This document shows positions 1,450-19,240 of a DNA stretch of 27,364 bases, piece by piece. The notes beneath the pieces were generated by a model that was given only the letters and a program-made list of their open reading frames with translations, searched no databases and was not told the origin of the DNA. This DNA comes from Promethearchaeota archaeon. Lineage in GTDB: Archaea > Asgardarchaeota > Lokiarchaeia > Sigyniarchaeales > SOKP01. How positions within the stretch are numbered: the stretch's first letter is position 1; each line of letters opens with the position of its first letter. The stretch is from contig JABCSY010000054.1 of the NCBI GenBank assembly GCA_018238625.1, positions 1-27,364 on the forward strand, given 5' to 3'. A program made the position numbers and the translations under genes.

Positions 1450-1968
1450 CTACTCTTTTAAAATTAAATATTCTTTTCGAGCTTTAGCATACTCTTCTCC
1501 ACTGATATTTCCAGCCAAGAATTCTTTTTCTCTTTCTTGCATAATTTTTCTTTTCTCAGCTAATCTCTTCCTTCTTTCTGCCTTTGAAAAACTTTCTAAA
1601 ATTGAGTTACTAAGTTTTCTTATTTCCTTGTTATCCTTTTTTACCAACTTCTCTACGTATGGCTTTATTGGTTTAACCAAATCTATTTTCTTTTTAGCTA
1701 ATTCATCAATTCTAACGAGGGCTTTATTTGTTTCTTTAAAATTATCACCATCAAGAACTTTAATTAGCCCTGGAATAGCAACATCTTCAAGAACCTCGTC
1801 AAGATATTGCTCAATTTCTTTCTTTAATTTTGAATCTTCGTAAGTCTTTAATTGATTATTACGTATGTATTCAATAAAAATAAGAGGTAATTCTATTGGC
1901 CACTCCTTCATTTTTTCTTTGTCTATTAGTTGTACTATCCCACCATCTTTTTTGTTAAATATTTTCAT
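1450..1968 (-). CDS. Hypothetical helical (HEAT/ARM-like) protein
   Basis: Helical pattern AIPGLIKVLDG...IKPYVEKLVKKDNKEIRKLSNSILE followed by a basic coiled tail. The ATG at 1968 overlaps the top6A stop (TAATG) and is preferred over the TTG at 1977. Confidence 0.6.
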   Translation of the reverse strand: MKIFNKKDGGIVQLIDKEKMKEWPIELPLIFIEYIRNNQLKTYEDSKLKKEIEQYLDEVLEDVAIPGLIKVLDGDNFKETNKALVRIDELAKKKIDLVKPIKPYVEKLVKKDNKEIRKLSNSILESFSKAERRKRLAEKRKIMQEREKEFLAGNISGEEYAKARKEYLILKE

Positions 1969-3161
1969 TATATCCAATCTCCAGTTGATAATTTTTCAGG
2001 TATGTATTGATCGGTCAAGAATTCAAATCCAAACGCTGAAAGAGCTTGAATTTCTGCTTTTACCTTCAATTTCAGAGCTAATTTGAGATCTGTTTCCCAC
2101 TCTTTATTTTTTTTAACAAAACCTTCATTTAACAACTCCTTAGTCCTTTTAATATCTGTTTGATTCATTGGAATTCTACAATCATTTGGAATTTTATATT
2201 TTTCCAGATCTCTGGTGAGTACACCTAGGAGTTTTATGTCAGGAGTGGCTAAAAATGGCGACTCGTAACTTAATCGTTTAGACCCTCGTAAATAAACCGA
2301 ATGAATATAATGCCCATACGGATCACTATCAACTAACGAAAAGACGGGTAATTTGAGTTCCTTACTAATTCTCTTTAAGAACATTCGGGTAGCGATGTCA
2401 GCAGCACCCTTCGCTGTCAAAATTATGCACGGGTATTTTCTCCAAAATCTAGCCTCTGCTAATCTTATCATCGCGGCATCTTTTTCTAAAACCAAAATAA
2501 ATTCCGCATCGGATTCAATTATTTCAATATTATCAAGCATGGGACTGATCGTCCAACCTCCGCTCCCTAATCCTTCTAAATCTATAATATCATTTTTATC
2601 CCTAATTCGAAGGCGTCCTATACATGAACCTTTGGCTGAAGCAACAATGTGTGTCGAATTCCTCGTTGTATAGAGCATTGTAGCCACATCTTCAATACAT
2701 TTATCACTATTTTTTTGATCCCCAAACAATTGAACTGCTGAATAAAAAATTTCTCTTTTTGTAGCGTGAAGGTCTTTAAGTAGTAATTCGTTAATTTTTT
2801 CAAGCACTTTCATTAATCTAGTAATATCAGCAACGCTAGCGAGCGAATGAAATTGTTTTTCCATTATTTGTTGTCCTAACAGCAATAAATCATTTTCTTC
2901 GTCCCAAATAATATTTGCACTCGTTCTTGAAGGTAAGCGAATGGCGGGTCTTCCTGTTTCATAAATCATTTCAATAAGGGAATCTGTTAAATTATTTATC
3001 CGATCTAAGGTTAATTCTCTGTCCAATTCATCAATTTTAACTGTATGTTCAGGTAACTTGATTTGTTTTTTTTCCTCTTCAATACCTTTTTTTAAGGATT
3101 CTTGAAATAGTTTTTTTGTTGCCCTTATATCCCATTTTTCCTGTTTTATCTTACTTGACAC
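1968..3161 (-). CDS. top6A: DNA topoisomerase VI subunit A (Spo11 homologue)
   Basis: Catalytic Tyr motif TKREIFY, TOPRIM Glu in LEKDA, DxD motif DSDPYG and C-terminal KAEIQAL. Adjacent to top6B. Confidence 0.95.
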   Translation of the reverse strand: MSSKIKQEKWDIRATKKLFQESLKKGIEEEKKQIKLPEHTVKIDELDRELTLDRINNLTDSLIEMIYETGRPAIRLPSRTSANIIWDEENDLLLLGQQIMEKQFHSLASVADITRLMKVLEKINELLLKDLHATKREIFYSAVQLFGDQKNSDKCIEDVATMLYTTRNSTHIVASAKGSCIGRLRIRDKNDIIDLEGLGSGGWTISPMLDNIEIIESDAEFILVLEKDAAMIRLAEARFWRKYPCIILTAKGAADIATRMFLKRISKELKLPVFSLVDSDPYGHYIHSVYLRGSKRLSYESPFLATPDIKLLGVLTRDLEKYKIPNDCRIPMNQTDIKRTKELLNEGFVKKNKEWETDLKLALKLKVKAEIQALSAFGFEFLTDQYIPEKLSTGDWI

Positions 3162-3171
3162 TTAAATCACT

Positions 3172-6100
3172 TCATTTTAACTTCCAATTTTTTTTATTTT
3201 TTATAGTAGAGACAACAATACTATTTTTGCGCTCTAACTCTTTTAATTTTATTTGTAAGAAGCGAGCATCCATCATTTCTTTTATTTTCATTTTAAAAAT
3301 TAAAGAAGTAATCGGTTGCCATTCATCAGATAAAGCGTCCAGTATTTTCTCTGTTGTAATTATCGGCAATTCGATTTGAGTAGGTTCAGGTTTAGGCTCT
3401 GGAGCACGAACTATAGGTTTCTTTATAGCGATAGGTTGAGTCGGCTTTTCACTCCCGACTAACCGCAATTGTTTTCTTTTTTCTGTTACAACGCTTGTAA
3501 CGACAGGTTTTAGTTTAATGGGCTCTTCTCTTTCCTTTACTGAAGGCGATATTACTTCTGGCTTTCCTTTTGTATAAAATTCTTGAATTATTTTAATAAT
3601 TTCTGATTTTCGCACCGTTGAAGATTTGGCTATTAAGATATCATTTTCTATGCAATATTCTTTGAGTTCATTAACGGTCCAGTTCCTAAGGGTTCTTTCA
3701 GAAAGAAATTCTTTTCTTGGTTCTGCCTTCTTGGGGATATGTTCTTTCTTATCAATTGTTTTCTCCCATTCAACGACTATTTTCTTCTGTTTTTCTTTTT
3801 CAATTTCTATCTTTTTAATTATTGGCTCAATCTCTTTAGAAATGCTAGGTATTTTTTTAACTCCAATAGCATCTTTCATTAAGGTTTCTAATTCCGTTCC
3901 TGAAATTTTATCTTTGTATTTTCCATCGCCCTGCTTTACGATGTTAGTAAGGCTTTGGACGAATAATGGAATGTATCTTTCAATTAAACCAGCTCTTTTT
4001 TCGATTTTTCGAATATTCGCTTTTCTGTTAAGATATATTCTCAACCGTCTTCCAATGGCTTCGAGACAATATTTAATTTCTTTTAGAAGTTCGTCGTCGT
4101 CAGCCAGAGCATTTTTACTCTGGCTCTTAAACATCAAATGAACATATGGACCAGAGATATTTATTAATAACTTTATTGGGCCTTTAGGCAAATTATTATC
4201 ATATGTTTCTAATTTATAATTCTTCCAATTAACTGATTGAACTGCTTTCGTAATCGCACAATCCGCAGAATCCCTTAATTTTGGCGTTCTATTAATAAAT
4301 CTTGATAGCACATCCCTAGAACGCTTAGGCGTATCAAGTTTTTTAGGATCATTGCAATAGGCCAAAACAGCTTCAACAGCATAAGCTAAACCCTTTCCGC
4401 TTGTTGGAGCTCTTGTTTCAGCAGAAATAAAATCATCGTCCTTGGTGTAACTTTCAATAAAATATTCGAATATTTCTTGATATGAATCTTTTTGCACTTC
4501 TTCGGACGATATAAAATTTTTTTGGATTGTTTGTCTAAATTTTTCCGGTTCGACTGAGCGATCTTTAATATCAACACTGGCTAACATCTTTGAGTTAAAA
4601 ATCTTAAGCTCTTCGGAATTTATAACGATATTTTCTAAAGAATCGTCCTTTCCGGAAGAATGGTTTTTAGCGCGCTCTTTTATTATTTCATCCCGCAATA
4701 CTTCAATTGATTCTTTTATGTCATCTGTGGGATCTTCAAAATCATCAATATTAGCAGATATTCTTAGCCCAATTTCTTTTATTAAAGTATTTTCTAATAC
4801 AACATCACCTACAGGAATTGCTGTATCTGTTGGAGGGGCCATGTATTTGACTGATTTGAACGCGTGAAATAGAGAATTGAATTGCACATTAGTTAACTCA
4901 GAGGGTTTAGCTTTTGAAATTTGAACTTCTTTTACTAAATCTTCAAATTCGCTCCTATTTTTTAATTTTTTAACTTCTACTAACCCTATAGAAGTATTGA
5001 AAATGGTATTTAAACCACTTTTTATTTTTTCTTTATTTTGTGAATTGCTCTCTATTTGTTTTAATAAGCTATTAATCTCTTTTTCGATTTTTTTTATATC
5101 TTTTTTCGTTTCAGATTTATCAATACGACGTCTATGTTTTGTTATTTCTCTATATATCTTTTCTAAATCTTTATTATATTGGTTATATGTTTTCATAAGT
5201 TCCCAATATTTAGCCTTCAACTCTTCAGAATCAACTTGATAAATGATTAATTTATCTCTTGGTTTCGTAGAGCGCCCAAATATTCTTTTTTCAAATTTAA
5301 GGAAATTAATAGTATCAGTATTTTTCTCTAATTTGTTTACAAATCCACTACTAAGAATTAATAAAGATAAATTATCCTGTAAATTCTTTTCTGCGATCTT
5401 CAGAATTTGTTTAGCTAATTTGGAACTAATTCTTACAAAATTATCTTGTAAAAAAGCTGAAATCGTGAGATTTTCTGATTTTATTAAAAGATCTTGTAAA
5501 TCACCAATGTTAGTAGATAAGGGGTGTGGTTTTGCATATTTTGGTTGTCTAGGAAAATTCGAAACTACCCTTCTATAAATCCATTCTTCACCATAAGGAT
5601 CAATAAAAATAATAGTTACATGCGGATTCATGAGCGAAGTTTCTTTTATATAGGTATCCACATAACCTCTAACATATTTTACGTTTAAGTAATTCAACTT
5701 AATATATGTCCCGTGTAGGAATGGGCTGTCAACTTCCGTTGGGCGCACTAAATATCGTTTTTCATTTTTTGAAGTAGTAAAAAATTCTGACACAGTACCA
5801 TAAATAGTGTCTTTAGACTTTGAAACTGCAACAATTGGTTTGCCAGTCGTGTTTTGGGCGTCACTAAACGCACTTGGAGAGCCAAATCCTTGACTTCCGC
5901 GAGTTTGCTTTAATTCTAGACTTTTTGAAGAAGCTAGATATTTTCCAAACTTACCTAGATCTCTTTTGGACATTCCAATACCATTATCAAACATTTCAAA
6001 AGTGTAACTCATAACATTTTTTTGCGATAACTCAGAAGTTAAAAAGGCGGCGGCTTCAGATTCGCGGAGTCGGATTATTACAATTGGTTCGATATCGATG

Positions 6101-6588
6101 ATTGGTTCTACAGGTTTGATAATTTCATTCATGTCTTCAATAATCCTTTTTACTTCTTCCTCAACCTCTATTTCCTCTTTATCGATAATTTCTCCCGATT
6201 CTTCTTCTTTATCTCTGTCAACATCTGACAAAACTTCAGCCTCAGAAGATATTGTAGGAATTATACCAACTTCTTGCATTAATGCATATTTAGACGCGTT
6301 ATTTAATGGTCGTTCCACCTCATCTTTTTTTGCTTCTTGAAGGATGGATAAATTTTCTAAAGATAATTCTTGATCGAGAGAGAATTGGATTTTTGAATCC
6401 TTATCTTTTATTTCATTCCATTGGAACTCTTCAATAGCATCTAAACTGTTGTCTAAAAATTCTGAAACGTATTGCATGTGTTTATAATAACCCATTGAGA
6501 AGCCTACAAGTTGTCCTCTCTTCCTCATAAACCCTGCAATTGTGCCTTGCTTTATCCTACCTTCATCCTCAGAGGAAATTTGAATCAC
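3172..6588 (-). CDS. top6B: DNA topoisomerase VI subunit B, enlarged (1138 aa)
   Basis: GHKL motifs EFLDNSLDA, FDNGIG, QTRGSQGFG and HGT; KPHP linker; transducer motifs RFINRTP and FKSQSK. Carries several insertions and a long C-terminal extension. Confidence 0.92.
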   Translation of the reverse strand: MIQISSEDEGRIKQGTIAGFMRKRGQLVGFSMGYYKHMQYVSEFLDNSLDAIEEFQWNEIKDKDSKIQFSLDQELSLENLSILQEAKKDEVERPLNNASKYALMQEVGIIPTISSEAEVLSDVDRDKEEESGEIIDKEEIEVEEEVKRIIEDMNEIIKPVEPIIDIEPIVIIRLRESEAAAFLTSELSQKNVMSYTFEMFDNGIGMSKRDLGKFGKYLASSKSLELKQTRGSQGFGSPSAFSDAQNTTGKPIVAVSKSKDTIYGTVSEFFTTSKNEKRYLVRPTEVDSPFLHGTYIKLNYLNVKYVRGYVDTYIKETSLMNPHVTIIFIDPYGEEWIYRRVVSNFPRQPKYAKPHPLSTNIGDLQDLLIKSENLTISAFLQDNFVRISSKLAKQILKIAEKNLQDNLSLLILSSGFVNKLEKNTDTINFLKFEKRIFGRSTKPRDKLIIYQVDSEELKAKYWELMKTYNQYNKDLEKIYREITKHRRRIDKSETKKDIKKIEKEINSLLKQIESNSQNKEKIKSGLNTIFNTSIGLVEVKKLKNRSEFEDLVKEVQISKAKPSELTNVQFNSLFHAFKSVKYMAPPTDTAIPVGDVVLENTLIKEIGLRISANIDDFEDPTDDIKESIEVLRDEIIKERAKNHSSGKDDSLENIVINSEELKIFNSKMLASVDIKDRSVEPEKFRQTIQKNFISSEEVQKDSYQEIFEYFIESYTKDDDFISAETRAPTSGKGLAYAVEAVLAYCNDPKKLDTPKRSRDVLSRFINRTPKLRDSADCAITKAVQSVNWKNYKLETYDNNLPKGPIKLLINISGPYVHLMFKSQSKNALADDDELLKEIKYCLEAIGRRLRIYLNRKANIRKIEKRAGLIERYIPLFVQSLTNIVKQGDGKYKDKISGTELETLMKDAIGVKKIPSISKEIEPIIKKIEIEKEKQKKIVVEWEKTIDKKEHIPKKAEPRKEFLSERTLRNWTVNELKEYCIENDILIAKSSTVRKSEIIKIIQEFYTKGKPEVISPSVKEREEPIKLKPVVTSVVTEKRKQLRLVGSEKPTQPIAIKKPIVRAPEPKPEPTQIELPIITTEKILDALSDEWQPITSLIFKMKIKEMMDARFLQIKLKELERKNSIVVSTIKNKKNWKLK

Positions 6589-6789: not shown

Positions 6790-8073
6790 TTATTTTGAAA
6801 TTTCTCTGATGCGGTAATTTTCTAAGGCTACATCAATTATTTTAGAAGCTACATATCTTTTAGTATGCTTATCGATATGAGTTATGTGTTTTACTTTATT
6901 TATTATGTATACCTCATTATCTTTACTGTTGAACCCTATATCCTCTCGACCCACATCATTGGCAACTATTAAATCTGACTCAGATTTTAAAAGTCTATCG
7001 TAAGCGCGATCAATTAGCTCGCTTCGAGAAACATTTGTCTCCGCTTTAAATGCGATAATAAAAAGATTGTAATCTTTCCTTCTTGCTATATCTAATATCT
7101 TAGGCGTTAATTTCATATTTACGTTTAATTCCTTTACATTATCTGACGAGATTTTTCCTTCAATGAGTTCCACTGGCTTATAATCGCTAATTGCGGCTGC
7201 AGAAATAAAGAAGTCGTAATTATTGTATGAAATTTCGTCCTTTATAACTTTAATAAAATCGTCTGCCGATTCCACATGATTGGTTTTAATGTACTCTGGA
7301 ATCTTCACCATACATTCACCAGCAACCAATAATACATCCGCACCTCTTGCAGAGGCTTCTTTTGCTATTTCGATACCCATTCTACCAGAGGATTTATTTG
7401 ATAAATACCGAACATTGTCTATTGCCTCGCGGCTGGGTCCAGCGGTGATTAGTATTCTCTTTCCTTCAAGATCCTTTTTCGTAATCAATAAATCAATAAC
7501 TCTATCGATTATATCATCCACTTTTGCAATCTTAGCCTTTCCTTCGCTAATTCTCGGACCTAATACGTCAATACCATACTTTTTCAAAACTGAGATATTT
7601 GTCTCGATTATGGGATGATACATACTTTCATGCATAGCAGGAACTACGACTATAGGGATAGAGGAACCAAAAGCGGTTGAGACCATTGTTGTTACCGGGG
7701 TGTCGTCTATCCCGTTAGCGACTTTAGAAATTGAATTTGCTGTTGCGGGACAAACCAAAATTAGATCTGCTTTTCCGGCGGCATTAGGTCTATCACCCGC
7801 TAGAAAAACATGTTCGACTGATCCAGTTAAATGAGTAATTACAGGGTTTCCTGTAGCCCAATGCATTAAAGTTGGCTTTATTAACTCTGTAGCTGCTTTT
7901 GACATTACGGAAATTACATCCGCTCCTAAACGCATTAATTCTCTAGCAATAATTGGAGCGTTAATAACCGCAACCGAGCCAGTTAAACACATGCATATAG
8001 TTTTTCCTCTTAAGATCGTTCCCTTGCTTTCTATAATGTCCTTGGATGGGTGCTGTAATCTGTCTTTTACCAT
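6790..8073 (-). CDS. coaBC: Bifunctional phosphopantothenoylcysteine decarboxylase/synthetase
   Basis: Flavoprotein motifs TGSVA, PATANSISK and PAMHESM; CoaB motifs ITAGPSREAIDNVRYLSNKSSGRMG, AAISDY, FKAET and ANDV. The ATG at 8073 is preferred over the TTG at 8085. Confidence 0.95.
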   Translation of the reverse strand: MVKDRLQHPSKDIIESKGTILRGKTICMCLTGSVAVINAPIIARELMRLGADVISVMSKAATELIKPTLMHWATGNPVITHLTGSVEHVFLAGDRPNAAGKADLILVCPATANSISKVANGIDDTPVTTMVSTAFGSSIPIVVVPAMHESMYHPIIETNISVLKKYGIDVLGPRISEGKAKIAKVDDIIDRVIDLLITKKDLEGKRILITAGPSREAIDNVRYLSNKSSGRMGIEIAKEASARGADVLLVAGECMVKIPEYIKTNHVESADDFIKVIKDEISYNNYDFFISAAAISDYKPVELIEGKISSDNVKELNVNMKLTPKILDIARRKDYNLFIIAFKAETNVSRSELIDRAYDRLLKSESDLIVANDVGREDIGFNSKDNEVYIINKVKHITHIDKHTKRYVASKIIDVALENYRIREISK

Positions 8074-8230
8074 TTCTTTCAACAAAATAGAGTTTTATTT
8101 AGTATACTTAATAAAGTTATATTTTCAATTTAAAAATATTGCAATCCTTTAACTCTTTTTGGATATTGGAAGATAAATTTTTGATTTATGTCGTTAAATT
8201 GGAAAGCTTTAACTAACGGCGGTAATAATA

Positions 8231-8277
8231 TTTTAAAAAAGAATAGAAATTATGTGATGTTCTTATAAAAAACATCA
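8231..8277 (-). terminator. Hairpin plus pyrimidine/U-rich tract after mini-ORF 1
   Basis: Inverted repeat TGATGTT (8255-8261)/AACATCA (8271-8277), then minus-strand TTTCTATTCTTTTTT. Confidence 0.5.
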
Positions 8278-8279
8278 TT

Positions 8280-8309
8280 TTATGGGAGGTGACCGTCCTG
8301 ACCAGGCAT
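8280..8309 (-). CDS. Putative 9-aa micropeptide MPGQDGHLP
   Basis: ATG CCT GGT CAG GAC GGT CAC CTC CCA TAA, preceded by AGTGAGAAAAA and followed by a hairpin and U-rich tract. Confidence 0.65.
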   Translation of the reverse strand: MPGQDGHLP

Positions 8310-8450
8310 TTTTTCTCACTTTGTTTGTTATGTGAATTGTTTTTAACTAATTTTTTTTTTAATTTGAAACCGAATTGAAACGACATAGATTACATTTTGT
8401 TAAATTGTAAGATCTATCTAATTATAATAAAATATTTTTTTAACTACTTA

Positions 8451-8496
8451 TTTTAAAAAAGAAAGGAAAATATATGATGTTTTTGTATAAAACATC
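8451..8496 (-). terminator. Hairpin plus U-rich tract after mini-ORF 2
   Basis: Inverted repeat GATGTTTT (8476-8483)/AAAACATC (8489-8496), then minus-strand TTTTCCTTTCTTTTTT. Confidence 0.55.
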
Positions 8497-8499
8497 CAT

Positions 8500-8529
8500 T
8501 TATGGTATGATATATGGTTGACCAGGCAT
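8500..8529 (-). CDS. Putative 9-aa micropeptide MPGQPYIIP
   Basis: ATG CCT GGT CAA CCA TAT ATC ATA CCA TAA, preceded by AGTGTGAAAAAA and followed by a hairpin and U-rich tract. Confidence 0.65.
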   Translation of the reverse strand: MPGQPYIIP

Positions 8530-8652
8530 TTTTTTCACACTATTTGTTTAATGAAATGAATTTAATATCTCCTTCTTTTAAATTTGAAACCAAATATACT
8601 TAGTTTTTTCAAAACCAATTTATTAATTAACAATATTTATTTAAACTACTTA

Positions 8653-8698
8653 TTTTAAAAAAGAAAGGAAAATACATGATGTTCTTACAATAAACATC
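8653..8698 (-). terminator. Hairpin plus U-rich tract after mini-ORF 3
   Basis: Inverted repeat GATGTT (8678-8683)/AACATC (8693-8698), then minus-strand TTTTCCTTTCTTTTTT. Confidence 0.5.
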
Positions 8699-8701
8699 TA
8701 A

Positions 8702-8731
8702 TTATGGCCCTATACCGTCATGACCAGGCAT
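8702..8731 (-). CDS. Putative 9-aa micropeptide MPGHDGIGP
   Basis: ATG CCT GGT CAT GAC GGT ATA GGG CCA TAA, preceded by AGTGAGAAAAA and followed by a hairpin and U-rich tract. Confidence 0.65.
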   Translation of the reverse strand: MPGHDGIGP

Positions 8732-9032
8732 TTTTTCTCACTCTATTTATTAATTGAAATGTATTTGATTTATTCTTTTTTTAATTTAAGGCTAAAATGG
8801 ATGATTTATGTTTAATTTTTTCAAGCCTATTTATTAATTTGATAAAATTTATTTAAACTCCTAAAAAAGTGAAAAGTGATTAGCGTAAAATAACCAACTC
8901 ATGCTTTTAGGGATTTTTAAATATAATTTTTTATCATTGTAGGTCTAAACAATTCTAAATACTTTACATCATCAAGTTTGGGGCTAAATGCTCCAGTGAA
9001 AAATGAAAGAAATTTTAAGAAGTATTCTTTTT

Positions 9033-10235
9033 TTATATTAAATCTGAAGGTAAATGTGGATTAGTAATTAAGTTTTGAAAGTTTTTAACTGAAGGAAGCT
9101 TTCCATACTTGTATTTTATGAGATTGCTTCCAAGGTTATACATAAAAGCGTTTTTTGAATAAACTGGGTTAGAGATTTTTTTTAGTTGAATTTTTATGGT
9201 TTCTTTACTAACAATTTCAAAATTTGTTCCATATCGTATTAATTGCTCGTCGTTATATTTATCAATAAGCGCATGATATGCAAAATTATACCAAAAAAGG
9301 GTTATTTTTCCTTTTACTTTGTTTTGTGCCATCATCATTTCAAGAGAATCTTCGTTTGATGAATCTGGACACAATTCTCGTAAACTAATTTCTACTGCTT
9401 CCCGATTTGAAAAGAGCATTTTTAATGCTAATTCTGCGATCCCTTCTGAGAGTATTAATTTAGGGCTATGTAGCAGTAGTATTGAGTGTTCAAATTGATT
9501 TAACTCGCGATATAACACTCTTTCTTTGATAGCAAATTCTGTATGATGGCCAGGATATCCCTCATGTGCGGCAGAAGACAAAAGTCCAGTCCAATAAATG
9601 TTGTAATTCGGATTAACCTCTATTCGGGAGCAAAAATTACCCACATACCAATTGTAATAAGACCATTTTATTTCATCATTATTTTTGACTAATTCTAACA
9701 CAATTCGTTCTTTTTGAGGTAATAAGTTGACAAATAACTTTTTAGTTCGCTCTCTCGTGATGTTGAGAGCTTTTTTATATAATTCAAATACTTTACCCTC
9801 AGGAACAGTTCGTCGTACTCTTAAATCGTTCATTCGCTTTTCTAAACTTCCAGAATCACCATACGCTGCGCTAAACTCTTCTTTTAAGTTATCTAATTCA
9901 GATTCTTTAACTGGTTGTAAGACTACATCATATAACTTTGAGAATTGCTCCTTTATAGGAATATCGATATCGCTTAGGATTTCGATGGAAGTTCTCATCG
10001 ATATTAATGTTTTTTCTAAGTATCGCTCGCGTTTTTTATCGTAACCTTGTTTAAACAAATCTTTTTGTAGAGCTTTGCAATCACTTAAAAGCTTGTTTGG
10101 TGAAGTTATAACCTCATTGTCAACGATTTTACGTAATTTTTTAGGACCAATATAAAAATCTACATATCCCTTATTGTGTTTGTCTATGCGAAGTGTTAAA
10201 TTCAGAAAACGTCTTCCATATTCAGATAATTTCAT
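9033..10235 (-). CDS. DUF885-like putative zinc metallopeptidase (gluzincin-like)
   Basis: HEGYPGHH motif (nt ~9543-9566) with a downstream EGIAE candidate third-ligand motif and a late Y-x-x-G, matching the pattern of DUF885-type proteins. No signal peptide is visible. Confidence 0.65.
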   Translation of the reverse strand: MKLSEYGRRFLNLTLRIDKHNKGYVDFYIGPKKLRKIVDNEVITSPNKLLSDCKALQKDLFKQGYDKKRERYLEKTLISMRTSIEILSDIDIPIKEQFSKLYDVVLQPVKESELDNLKEEFSAAYGDSGSLEKRMNDLRVRRTVPEGKVFELYKKALNITRERTKKLFVNLLPQKERIVLELVKNNDEIKWSYYNWYVGNFCSRIEVNPNYNIYWTGLLSSAAHEGYPGHHTEFAIKERVLYRELNQFEHSILLLHSPKLILSEGIAELALKMLFSNREAVEISLRELCPDSSNEDSLEMMMAQNKVKGKITLFWYNFAYHALIDKYNDEQLIRYGTNFEIVSKETIKIQLKKISNPVYSKNAFMYNLGSNLIKYKYGKLPSVKNFQNLITNPHLPSDLI

Positions 10236-16374: not shown

Positions 16375-16420
16375 TTTTAAAAAAGAAAGGAAATTATATG
16401 ATACTCTTAGAAAGAGCAAC
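16375..16420 (-). terminator. Hairpin plus U-rich tract after mini-ORF 4
   Basis: CTCTT (16404-16408)/AAGAG (16412-16416) core stem, extendable with a G-U pair on the minus strand, then TTTCCTTTCTTTTTT. Confidence 0.45.
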
Positions 16421-16423
16421 AAT

Positions 16424-16453
16424 TTATGGTACAAGACCGTTTTGACCAGGCAT
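16424..16453 (-). CDS. Putative 9-aa micropeptide MPGQNGLVP (solo copy of the repeat family)
   Basis: ATG CCT GGT CAA AAC GGT CTT GTA CCA TAA, preceded by GAGTGATTAAA. Has the same downstream hairpin position and TTTCCTTTCTTTTTT tract as the 8.2-8.9 kb copies. Confidence 0.65.
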   Translation of the reverse strand: MPGQNGLVP

Positions 16454-16654
16454 TTTAATCACTCGATTCATTAATTGAAAAAATTTAGCTTATTATTAGA
16501 ATTTAAAATGATTATTTAAACTGCGAAAATAATTTTGAGGATTTTTTAAATAATAACTCATAACAACTTTTATTTAGTTTTAAATTATAATAAAAATTAA
16601 AGTAATGATAATTTAATTAATATCAAATAAAAATTACAAATTTTAGGAATAACA

Positions 16655-19132: not shown

Positions 19133-19204
19133 GGGCCTGTAGATCAGTCGCAGATCGCTTGCTTCGCATGTAAGAGGGCACGGGTTCAATTCCCGTCAGG
19201 TCCA
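19133..19204 (+). tRNA. tRNA-Ala(CGC)
   Basis: Cloverleaf: acceptor GGGCCTG/CAGGTCC with G3:U70, D-stem GATC/GATC, anticodon stem CTTGC/GTAAG with CGC at 19165-19167, T-arm ACGGG-TTCAATT-CCCGT and discriminator A. CCA is not encoded. Confidence 0.93.
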
Positions 19205-19240
19205 CTATTACATTAAATAACTATCTAAAAAGGTATGTAA

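Follow-up and report, generated by a model that had tools for sequence, protein, structure and literature searches.

This report concerns a family of nine-codon open reading frames (ORFs) recognised in a stretch of 27,364 nucleotides (nt) from a Promethearchaeota archaeon (GenBank assembly GCA_018238625.1, contig JABCSY010000054.1, positions 1 to 27,364 of the forward strand). This stretch, here called the window, is contig C164 of a 4.29-Mb assembly with 32% GC. Our analysis suggests that the ORFs are real, separately transcribed micropeptide genes and that their products are ligands of the peptidase-like protein encoded next to them, a reading that we consider probable. Two lines of evidence carry it. 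Comparison among relatives shows coding-type constraint on the nine-codon family, and comparison of loci shows its linkage, in either orientation, to a gene for a putative zincin.

The original prediction had reported four minus-strand ORFs of 30 nt: unit 1 at 8280-8309 (MPGQDGHLP), unit 2 at 8500-8529 (MPGQPYIIP), unit 3 at 8702-8731 (MPGHDGIGP) and unit 4 at 16424-16453 (MPGQNGLVP), each closed by TAA. A search of the window with the pattern ATGCCTGGTCA-N13-CCATAA returned four minus-strand matches against 0.01 expected, a number reached in none of 100 shuffles, and all four coordinates and translations hold. Units 1 to 3 occupy a gap of 947 bp (8086-9032), given earlier as about 950 bp between coaBC and a metallopeptidase gene. 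It is flanked by a coaBC-type ORF at 6790-8085 (Pfam DFP and Flavoprotein) and by a 400-residue ORF at 9033-10235, the partner gene of what follows. Unit 4, flanked by a MoxR-type AAA ORF and a pyruvate-formate-lyase-like ORF, is an orphan without an adjoining partner gene; an ORF identical to it in another genome (G050) sits behind a partner paralogue. The 30-nt ORF of unit 2 is also found in G020 and G008. The GTGA said to precede every ATG can be read at all four units, 6 nt before the start in units 1 and 3 (8316-8319 and 8738-8741) and 5 nt before it in units 2 and 4 (8535-8538 and 16459-16462). The observation of four ORFs with these features is confirmed. What did not hold was its scope, for the genome carries 19 copies rather than four and the conserved unit measures about 130 nt rather than 30.

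Aligned with their flanks, the four units share a block that reaches from about 45 nt upstream of the ATG to a hairpin and a T-tract. An A/T-rich upstream part is followed by GAGTGAG, the ORF, a hairpin that begins 2-5 nt past the stop, and TTTCCTTTCTTTTTTAAAAT. The hairpins, all on the minus strand, lie at 8255-8277, 8476-8496, 8678-8698 (GATGTTT...GAACATC, starting 4 nt past the stop) and 16400-16420 (GTTGCTCTT...AAGAGTATC, in which the stem changes relative to units 1 to 3 preserve pairing). Beyond them come T6 runs at 8235-8240 (unit 1) and 16379-16384 (unit 4) and T-rich tracts containing a T6 run at 8455-8470 (unit 2) and 8657-8672 (unit 3), the last of which is a likely transcription terminator. 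Oligo-T terminators are in general use in archaea.

At the other end, a TATA-like AGTTTAAATAAAT is found 65-120 nt upstream of each ATG, right after the preceding T-tract. The element of unit 1 (GTTAAAAAAATA, 8433-8444) is A/T-rich and the weakest of the four. That of unit 2 (TTTAAATA) lies at 8638-8645, and the same TTTAAATA is found about 64 nt upstream of unit 4 (16513-16520). About 120 nt upstream of unit 3, the first micro-ORF of its array, TTTAAATA recurs at 8850-8857 inside a conserved block, TTTTTTAGGAGTTTAAATAAAT, as a candidate promoter. In the alignment the block around this element is kept in all ten cassettes of the genome (partner gene plus units, as described below). A second promoter candidate resembling GTTAAATA is placed about 40 nt upstream of the ATG. 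We infer that the TATA-like elements act as promoters. A scan for sigma-70 promoters and intrinsic terminators, of a type unsuited to an archaeon, gave nothing above shuffles. With a promoter-like element in front and a terminator behind, each micro-ORF would form its own small minus-strand transcription unit, which, as part of the reading stated at the outset, we hold to be the probable arrangement.

Members of the family were sought first in the genome itself and then far beyond it. An nhmmer profile of the unit recovered 17 strong copies and one diverged copy on contig C43, to which an ORF-shaped pattern added one on C36, giving 19 copies at 13 loci. A covariance model of the unit (R1) gave 84 matches in 15 of the 42 genomes of the genus. 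The pattern ATGCCNGGN-N15-CCNTAA matched 8 of the 24 congeners sampled. Beyond the genus, within the same order, it found only three matches, two of them with internal stops, and a reversed control pattern gave 0-1 match per genome. When the exact pattern was run over one genome each for about 185,000 prokaryote species, 24 stretches were returned, titled as metagenome-assembled genomes (MAGs) of Promethearchaeota or Promethearchaeia, one MAG of an "uncultured archaeon" and two contigs of an actinobacterial MAG. On these searches the family, with about 90 known copies, is confined to one genus-level group of Promethearchaeota (Asgard) MAGs, in keeping with the Asgard origin that the original prediction had guessed. 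For the tests below, 89 full-length units were collected, 19 from this genome and the rest from fetched loci of other genomes; five had been found through the ORF pattern and not the profile.

Two observations on the edges of the family may be recorded here. All public contigs that bear a cassette are titled Asgard except two (loci L081 and L102), which are titled Nanopelagicaceae, the actinobacterial MAG just mentioned; a wrong title or a binning error is the probable cause. A diverged subfamily (MPGNCNTTP, MPGTANTTP, MPGTADATP and others) comprises the copies at C43:22047-22076 and C36:15456-15485 of the window's genome (G000), with relatives in G007, G008, G010, G011, G020 and G051. Its hairpin is different and G+C-rich (TTCTCCCGC...GCGGGAAAA), and it occurs without an adjoining partner gene. 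We looked for a common partner of these orphans and rejected the idea: their neighbours (MFS transporters, DUF7064/7065, CdhD and unknown proteins) differ between loci, and two are unrelated to each other.

Comparative data favour translation of the ORFs. Nine codons are kept in 83 of the 89 units. Three have ten codons, the TAA lacking a base and the ORF running on to the following stop in frame (...PY, ...PK), a 3-nt deletion leaves one with eight (MAGHYRIP), and two are disrupted. Starts are ATG (85), TTG (3), GTG (1) and CTG (1, in a decayed copy). The codon for Pro2 is CCT 72 times, CCA 7 and CCC 3 (GCT and TTT once each), that for Gly3 is GGT 57 times, GGA 14, GGG 7 and GGC 5 (CAT once), and that for Pro9 is CCA 53 times, CCT 19, CCC 9 and CCG 3; changes at first or second positions of these three codons number 2, 1 and 0 of 84. 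The original prediction had cautioned that the conserved Pro and Gly codons show no synonymous change and had suggested looking for third-position variation in homologues. The caution applies within the window and lapses once relatives are added: among homologues in 14 other genomes, third positions vary freely at Pro2, Gly3 and Pro9 and positions 1 and 2 are near invariant. This test supports the family of diversified peptides that had been proposed, in which a constant scaffold surrounds a variable core.

The 15 letters of the core point in the same direction. Among 74 distinct intact ORFs, reading the core in frames +1 and +2 gives 13 and 20 stops per 370 codons, and 2000 shuffles of the core letters gave a mean of 25.5 stops and a minimum of 11; in frame, a core stop is present in only 2 of the 89 units. 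The residues are also far from random in kind. Among 69 distinct nine-residue peptides, position 4 is Q, E or H in 54 (Q32, E16, H6), position 6 is G, D, N or E in 62 (G36, D13, N7, E6) and position 7 is I, T, A or V in 57 (I22, T18, A12, V5), each class being encoded by several codons. All 69 end in Pro and none in Asn. One peptide, MPGQAGAVP, exists in three nucleotide versions in four genomes with its amino acids unchanged, and the two of its partner proteins that were compared are only 75% identical.

The 3' end of the 16S rRNA in this genome reads ...GGAUCACCUCCU. Compared with a control window, the stretches ahead of 2379 long ORFs are richer in GTGA by 4.4-fold and in AGTGA by 8.9-fold, and the peak lies at -11 to -9. 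The earlier claim that GTGA is a Shine-Dalgarno (SD) core is thereby supported in this archaeon. GTGA stands at -10 or -9 in 59 of the 89 units, and diverged units carry other SD-compatible words (GGTGG, GGAGTGA, GGGAG, GAGGTA). Of 79 distinct units, 54 form the more stable hairpin on the ORF strand and 21 on the opposite strand (Wilcoxon p 3e-5), with 83 G-U pairs on the ORF strand against 38 on the other. In a model-fitted alignment of 49 units, six of seven stem pairs have changed on both sides and 93% of cells pair, and the covariation score was reached in none of 500 shuffles. Outside the hairpin, neither strand of the units folds better than its shuffles do (z -0.64 to +0.63). Rfam identified only a tRNA-Ala in the window, the matches within 8100-9050 being at chance level alone. 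A search of sequencing runs turned up no RNA data set with this DNA; two runs labelled metatranscriptomic had a small share of it, and their contigs, which covered only the coaBC side of the gap (7900-8186), are uninformative on micro-ORF expression.

The second line of evidence is the neighbourhood. When the ORFs flanking the 13 loci of this genome were compared all against all, a single family recurred, the paralogues of the 400-residue ORF at 9033-10235 (P0001, minus strand). Ten of the loci lie 160-355 nt downstream of such a paralogue, on the same strand, and the ten paralogues are 64-86% identical. The cassette so defined, an array of one to three micro-ORFs behind a partner paralogue, is present ten times in the genome; the exceptions are the window unit at 16424 and the members of the diverged subfamily on C43 and C36. 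Among the genus's 42 genomes, 17 encode the protein, 15 have units and 14 have both, and the three genomes that have the protein only possess just a paralogue of 37-41% identity. Of 39 partner genes from other genomes at 56% identity or above, 37 are followed on the same strand by a unit 54-515 nt downstream and the other two run off the contig end, which makes 37 of 37 assessable genes. The linkage reappears among 80 metagenome contigs retrieved through the partner protein profile alone, of which only some loci could be assessed: micro-ORFs occur at all seven assessable low-GC loci with a partner of at least 50% identity, including the new variants MLGRAEIIP, MPGYTDINP, MPHTFDIFP and VPHVHDTLP (GTG start, TGA stop).

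Traces of the pairing extend to paralogues of 36-44% identity. Near them lie ORFs of 8-11 codons, co-directional or convergent, that end in Pro. Within the genus 6 of 11 loci have such ORFs, against 1 of 5 from the sister genus and 1 of 3 from metagenomes (MPVDGNIVP, MPHTDGIVP, MPSGNIIPE, MPHAGDAVP, MPHSPNTVP, MPADTGGTVP, MEVNGGSIIP, MPHGPGGTVIP, MQGPGVIP), and Pro-ended short ORFs of this kind have a genome-wide background of 0.044 per kb. The partner protein is single-copy in other Asgard families, where 20 loci showed no such ORF. Bacterial-type homologues (24-34% identity, GC 0.49-0.75) likewise had none by the criteria used, of which the T-run criterion is unsuited to high-GC DNA.

Several observations on individual loci belong here. 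In G043 (C137:14020-14920, locus L113) three convergent ten-codon ORFs stand in a row behind a partner paralogue of 37% identity: MEVNGGSIIP, MPADTGGTVP and, between them and seen by eye only, MSISSGGIIP. The MP start is missing from two of the three, which shows the constant feature of the wider family to be its ...[IV]P-stop end. Three partner paralogues of about 40% identity without a micro-ORF (G019 C15, G009 C27 and G106 C31; L109, L110 and L119) have, no more than about 50 nt downstream, a gene with a CxxxCxxC radical-SAM-type motif, an arrangement kept in three genomes of two genera. In the window itself, the roughly 150 nt between the partner stop and the TATA-like block (8858-9032, minus strand) are kept in the five most similar cassettes (C24a, C24b, C86, C164 and C188) and may be a 3' untranslated region or another RNA element. 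A 13-codon ORF in this stretch was considered and set aside as probably not coding, its ATG being missing, by eye, in one paralogue. Finally, sediment-metagenome DNA contigs (runs X5 and X8) join across 201-202 nt or 453-464 nt within 8290-8840, as if the number of units varied by strain; the joints rest on 85% likeness within repeats and may stem from other loci or organisms.

The partner is best described as a distant DUF885-like, cytoplasmic, putative zincin with the motif HExYPGHH and no signal peptide evident by eye. P0001 had no match in Pfam at default thresholds. At relaxed thresholds DUF885 matched at the motif with 16.7 bits against a gathering cut-off of 32.4, and 19 of 55 diverse relatives match DUF885 (PF05960) at E<=0.01, some of them collinearly over 100-150 residues; the best E is 4e-6, and as far as shown none of these matches reaches the cut-off. 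Pfam assigns DUF885 to the zinc-peptidase clan Peptidase_MA, as stated in a passage of one report (PMC12572635). H224, E225, Y227, G229, H230 and H231 are invariant in the 55 sequences, down to 24% identity, and E249 and E264-G265 are near invariant; the spacing, HExxxxHH, is non-canonical compared with HExxH. The original prediction had called the neighbour a metallopeptidase gene; its role as the conserved partner had been missed. The family is large (692 close relatives, 1226 representative clusters), and a feature search with the homologue P0052 found as nearest entries clusters of "putative DUF885 domain-containing protein" from Actinomycetota. Searches of PDB sequences with the protein gave no significant match, and the A4 profile gave weak, single-repeat-length similarity to TPR proteins (E 0.003-0.47). 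NCBIfam gave no match, Pfam and NCBIfam no nuclease or nucleic-acid-binding family, PADLOC and PHROGs only chance-level matches for five family members, and viral contigs no relative. At the level of titles and abstracts, the DUF885 literature gives no function for the family.

We infer that each peptide binds the enzyme encoded next to it as a cognate ligand and occupies the substrate channel of that enzyme. In the mechanism that we propose, a gene would consist of an A/T-rich promoter, an SD-like GTGA, nine codons of the form M-P-G-x5-P, a stop, a terminator hairpin and oligo-T. Methionine is usually removed before proline, and its removal would leave an octapeptide with Pro at both ends. 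Proline at both ends is expected to slow exopeptidases, so that the octapeptide should resist or delay them. The enzyme-peptide pair has been duplicated and has diverged in this genome, and across the wider family the linkage has also come through inversion. A strong-looking promoter of its own, tandem copies and a tight terminator would together give a large excess of peptide over protein, which parallels the description of mccA in part of one account (PMC4231749).

If the peptides are ligands, several roles are conceivable, among which we lean, tentatively, to a labile active-site blocker or regulator that would be antitoxin-like. We do so because the enzyme gene was never seen without a peptide gene and peptide genes persist without the enzyme, because the pair is expanded and diverging, and because hydrophobic-X-Pro C-termini are classic poor substrates and inhibitors of gluzincins. 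A substrate or precursor trimmed by the enzyme to a product is nearly as likely, and would fit the mixed arrays behind a single enzyme gene. An exported signal is possible, though the peptides have no export feature, and we give it a small chance; some quite different role is smaller still in our estimation. More specific, and in our view rather doubtful, is the idea of an octapeptide library of short-lived, paralogue-matched active-site ligands ("micro-antitoxins" or switches), each devoted to its own copy of the expanded zincin family.

Should the reading be true, these would be the smallest known archaeal genes, in a peptide-protease module without a described counterpart, and their products the first natural ligands for the uncharacterised DUF885-like proteins. 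The conserved pairing offers a candidate natural ligand for a widespread peptidase-like family, and a two-part module of purchasable peptides and a soluble-looking 400-residue protein is simple and cheap to test. Peptides that regulate or block the enzyme would represent a new protease control by a genetically encoded octapeptide; with peptides that are processed or exported, Asgard archaea would have their first candidate system for peptide natural products or peptide signalling.

Several points weigh against this reading. The support for these genes comes from sequence comparison, and the collection of units is partly biased, given that the profiles include the conserved ORF ends and that five units came from an ORF-shaped pattern; stop avoidance and the third-position tests on variable letters are less touched by this bias. 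Close pairs of units differ by 25 synonymous and 45 non-synonymous single changes, where 27% synonymous would be expected; the resulting ratio of about 0.68, from non-independent pairs, means that constraint on the core is weak on average. Core identity also drops faster than partner-protein identity. Besides the 3 exceptional loci among the 13 of this genome, 18 of 67 model matches in other genomes have no adjoining listed partner gene. A single enzyme gene is followed by arrays of unlike peptides, which argues against strict one-to-one specificity, and gene neighbourhood alone does not show binding. The peptidase nature of the partner, lastly, depends on a sub-threshold Pfam match and a non-canonical motif.

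Three other explanations have to be set beside it. One could envision that the units are small non-coding RNA genes in which the ORF is incidental. An RNA motif would then account for the invariant letters, and the 15 variable ones would form a segment that provides specificity or guidance to the neighbouring protein. The conservation over some 130 nt, well past the ORF, the promoter-like and terminator elements of every unit and the covarying hairpin would all suit such genes, as would the general outline, reminiscent of guide-RNA systems, of a variable block between constant flanks beside a multi-copy protein of 400 residues. A guide segment would not, however, account for period-three variation at the third positions of the Pro2, Gly3 and Pro9 codons, for starts that alternate between ATG, TTG and GTG, for length changes that stay in frame, for core stops in only 2 of 89 units where 13-25 would be expected in 370 codons, or for differences between orthologues that are synonymous only. 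Apart from the terminator hairpin the units fold no better than shuffles, Rfam yielded no match at gathering score or, beyond chance, at E<=1, and the partner matched no nuclease or nucleic-acid-binding family in Pfam or NCBIfam, and we regard this explanation as highly improbable. A different possibility is that the ORF is translated and the peptide itself irrelevant: a fixed-length, Pro-stop ORF beside a hairpin might control transcript stability or termination, as in mccA, or sense translation capacity. A ribosome terminating 2-5 nt before the hairpin would presumably cover its 5' arm, nine codons are retained in 83 of 89 units, the core evolves fast (ratio of about 0.68), and part of one report describes ribosome-controlled termination just past a seven-codon ORF (PMC4231749). 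There is, however, no consistent downstream gene to control, the units ending arrays, facing convergent genes or converging on the partner; positions 4, 6 and 7 are strongly biased through several synonymous codons, and MPGQAGAVP and MPGQPYIIP are conserved across species. This explanation strikes us as unlikely.

The peptides might also be real and the adjacency a matter of co-duplicated neutral neighbours or shared regulation, with no direct contact between peptide and protein. Orphan units (3 of 13 loci in this genome) and the mixing of unlike peptides within arrays are compatible with this, and the correlation of core and protein identity is what vertical co-inheritance alone would produce. 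Against it, the linkage has outlasted changes in orientation, spacing and peptide type, down to paralogues of 36-44% identity and into the sister genus; a unit accompanies 37 of 37 and 7 of 7 assessable partner genes, and the flanks hold no other recurring gene family. We judge mere neighbourhood to be very unlikely, and the reading of the units as micropeptide genes for ligands of the adjacent protein to be the favoured one.

Decayed copies bear on that reading as well. The original prediction had named, as evidence that would count against peptide genes, homologues that keep the nucleotide motif and have a broken ORF. Three full-length units of about 90 are of this sort, each with several lesions at once and without an intact partner gene: one in G004 (C174) has an internal TGA, one in G048 (C113) lacks the ATG, Pro2 and the SD and contains a stop, and one in G011 (C42) has lost its start. 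Four more elements retain the hairpin and T-tract only, three of them, judged by eye, at the orthologue of the window locus 16424, bringing the decayed total to 7 of about 94. None lies behind an intact partner gene, and for this reason we read them as pseudogenes and let the earlier inference stand. Peptide genes outlive broken or lost enzyme genes in G008 (C285), at a broken copy in G056 (C25, 7376-7771) and at the window unit 16424. Three relatives that by eye are orthologous to the 16424 locus (G016 C53:26404-26680, G020 C98:200-470 and G042 C19:6270-6543; L072, L066 and L068) have lost the promoter and most of the ORF and have the hairpin and T-tract nearly intact.

A few named RNA or mobile elements were considered and rejected. 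C/D box RNAs were judged by a C box (RUGAUGA) and a D box (CUGA) that form a k-turn, with the guide upstream of D. On the plus strand the would-be D box is NTGA, in which N is C, T or A as set by the third positions of codon 4, the would-be C box falls inside the covarying hairpin, and there is no Rfam match. For an H/ACA RNA, the ACA past the hairpin is not conserved. A tRNA on C24 has GCCTGGTCAACGGT in common with some units, which suggested a tRNA-derived origin, but within the family the ACGGT part changes in the manner of codons. A transposon or guide-RNA system is at odds with the identity of the paralogues, which at 64-86% falls short of near-identity, and the searches brought up no family of transposases or nucleases.

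Two other features of the window deserve mention. The ORF at 3172-6588 (minus strand, 1138 residues) carries signatures of the topoisomerase VI B transducer and the GHKL ATPase and adjoins a normal Top6A ORF (1968-3161); archaeal Top6B is about half that length. The tRNA-Ala (CGC) at 19133-19205 (plus strand), just upstream of a valyl-tRNA-synthetase-like ORF, is ordinary.

Rfam, Pfam, NCBIfam, PADLOC and PHROGs have no family that includes the peptide genes or gives the pair a name, and the literature on Asgard small proteins, DUF885, and short ORFs and SD sequences in Asgard archaea holds, at the level of titles and abstracts, nothing relevant to such genes. Several known systems resemble the pairing in part. 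The insect gene tarsal-less/polished rice makes 11-residue peptides from one eukaryotic polycistronic mRNA, and these act through a ubiquitin ligase. Its tandem, very short ORFs for related peptides with a conserved motif recall the arrays described here, in which, by contrast, every ORF carries its own promoter-like and terminator elements and the neighbour is zincin-like. Snake bradykinin-potentiating peptides and inhibitors of angiotensin-converting enzyme of the Ile-Pro-Pro type have 5-13 residues, a blocked or Pro N-terminus and a hydrophobic-X-Pro C-terminus, occupy the channel of a zinc peptidase and resist cleavage. The analogy with these Pro-terminated gluzincin inhibitors would be a chemical one only, as they are cut from larger precursors in animals or food proteins.

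Among peptides that are ribosomally synthesised and post-translationally modified (RiPPs), families such as the cyanobactins and fungal MSDIN/amatoxin peptides have hypervariable cores between constant flanks, the cores of the MSDIN/amatoxin precursors being bounded by Pro. Constant ends, a variable core of fixed length, several precursor genes beside one enzyme and Pro marking both ends are all found here too. There is, however, no leader or follower, and none would fit in nine codons; only M-P-G and the final P stay the same, and in place of a known macrocyclase or tailoring enzyme stands a putative metallopeptidase. In the flanks of the 13 loci of this genome, neither a transporter nor any other tailoring gene recurs. 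The propeptides of RRNPP systems (Rap-Phr, NprR-NprX, PlcR-PapR, AimR-AimP) are tens of residues long, secreted and processed, occur in Firmicutes and mobile elements, and act on TPR receptors without a peptidase motif. The common ground with these systems, which two reports treat (PMC10075063, PMC9765709), is a cytoplasmic protein of about 300-400 residues with a short peptide gene adjoining it. Many diverged paralogous pairs per genome and a peptide that evolves faster than the protein are a further likeness, and a gene for a would-be receptor beside the peptide gene, in many diverged pairs, is what we find. ORFs of 8-11 codons, however, are too short to hold an export signal, the units show no conserved ORF of greater length in frame, and the partner keeps its invariant HExYPGHH.

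A likeness in gene layout exists to microcin C. Its peptide, MccA, has seven residues and a C-terminal Asn that is adenylated by an E1-like enzyme. In both cases an ORF of fewer than ten codons is followed immediately by a hairpin, which here is 2-5 nt past the stop and covaries. The gene mccA, treated in three reports (PMC4231749, PMC6495379, PMC4010828), is a functional, translated gene of this size with its own SD, a terminator hairpin right behind it and a short, abundant transcript. By analogy with MccA, which is the substrate of the protein encoded next door, the peptides proposed here would be ligands of their neighbour. The differences are that the peptides of this family end in Pro (69 of 69 distinct sequences), the partner is zincin-like, the host is an archaeon and as many as ten diverged cassettes share a genome. 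Pfam found no MccB-type (ThiF/E1-like) adenylyltransferase among ten window ORFs and seven ORFs beside orphan units, the flanking ORFs having been scanned in part. The earlier statement that the family matches no described system is borne out by these comparisons. The nearest analogues, the mccA-mccB, RRNPP and RiPP systems, each differ in one or more of the defining traits that were tested. The peptide-enzyme pairing looks like a real, undescribed module.

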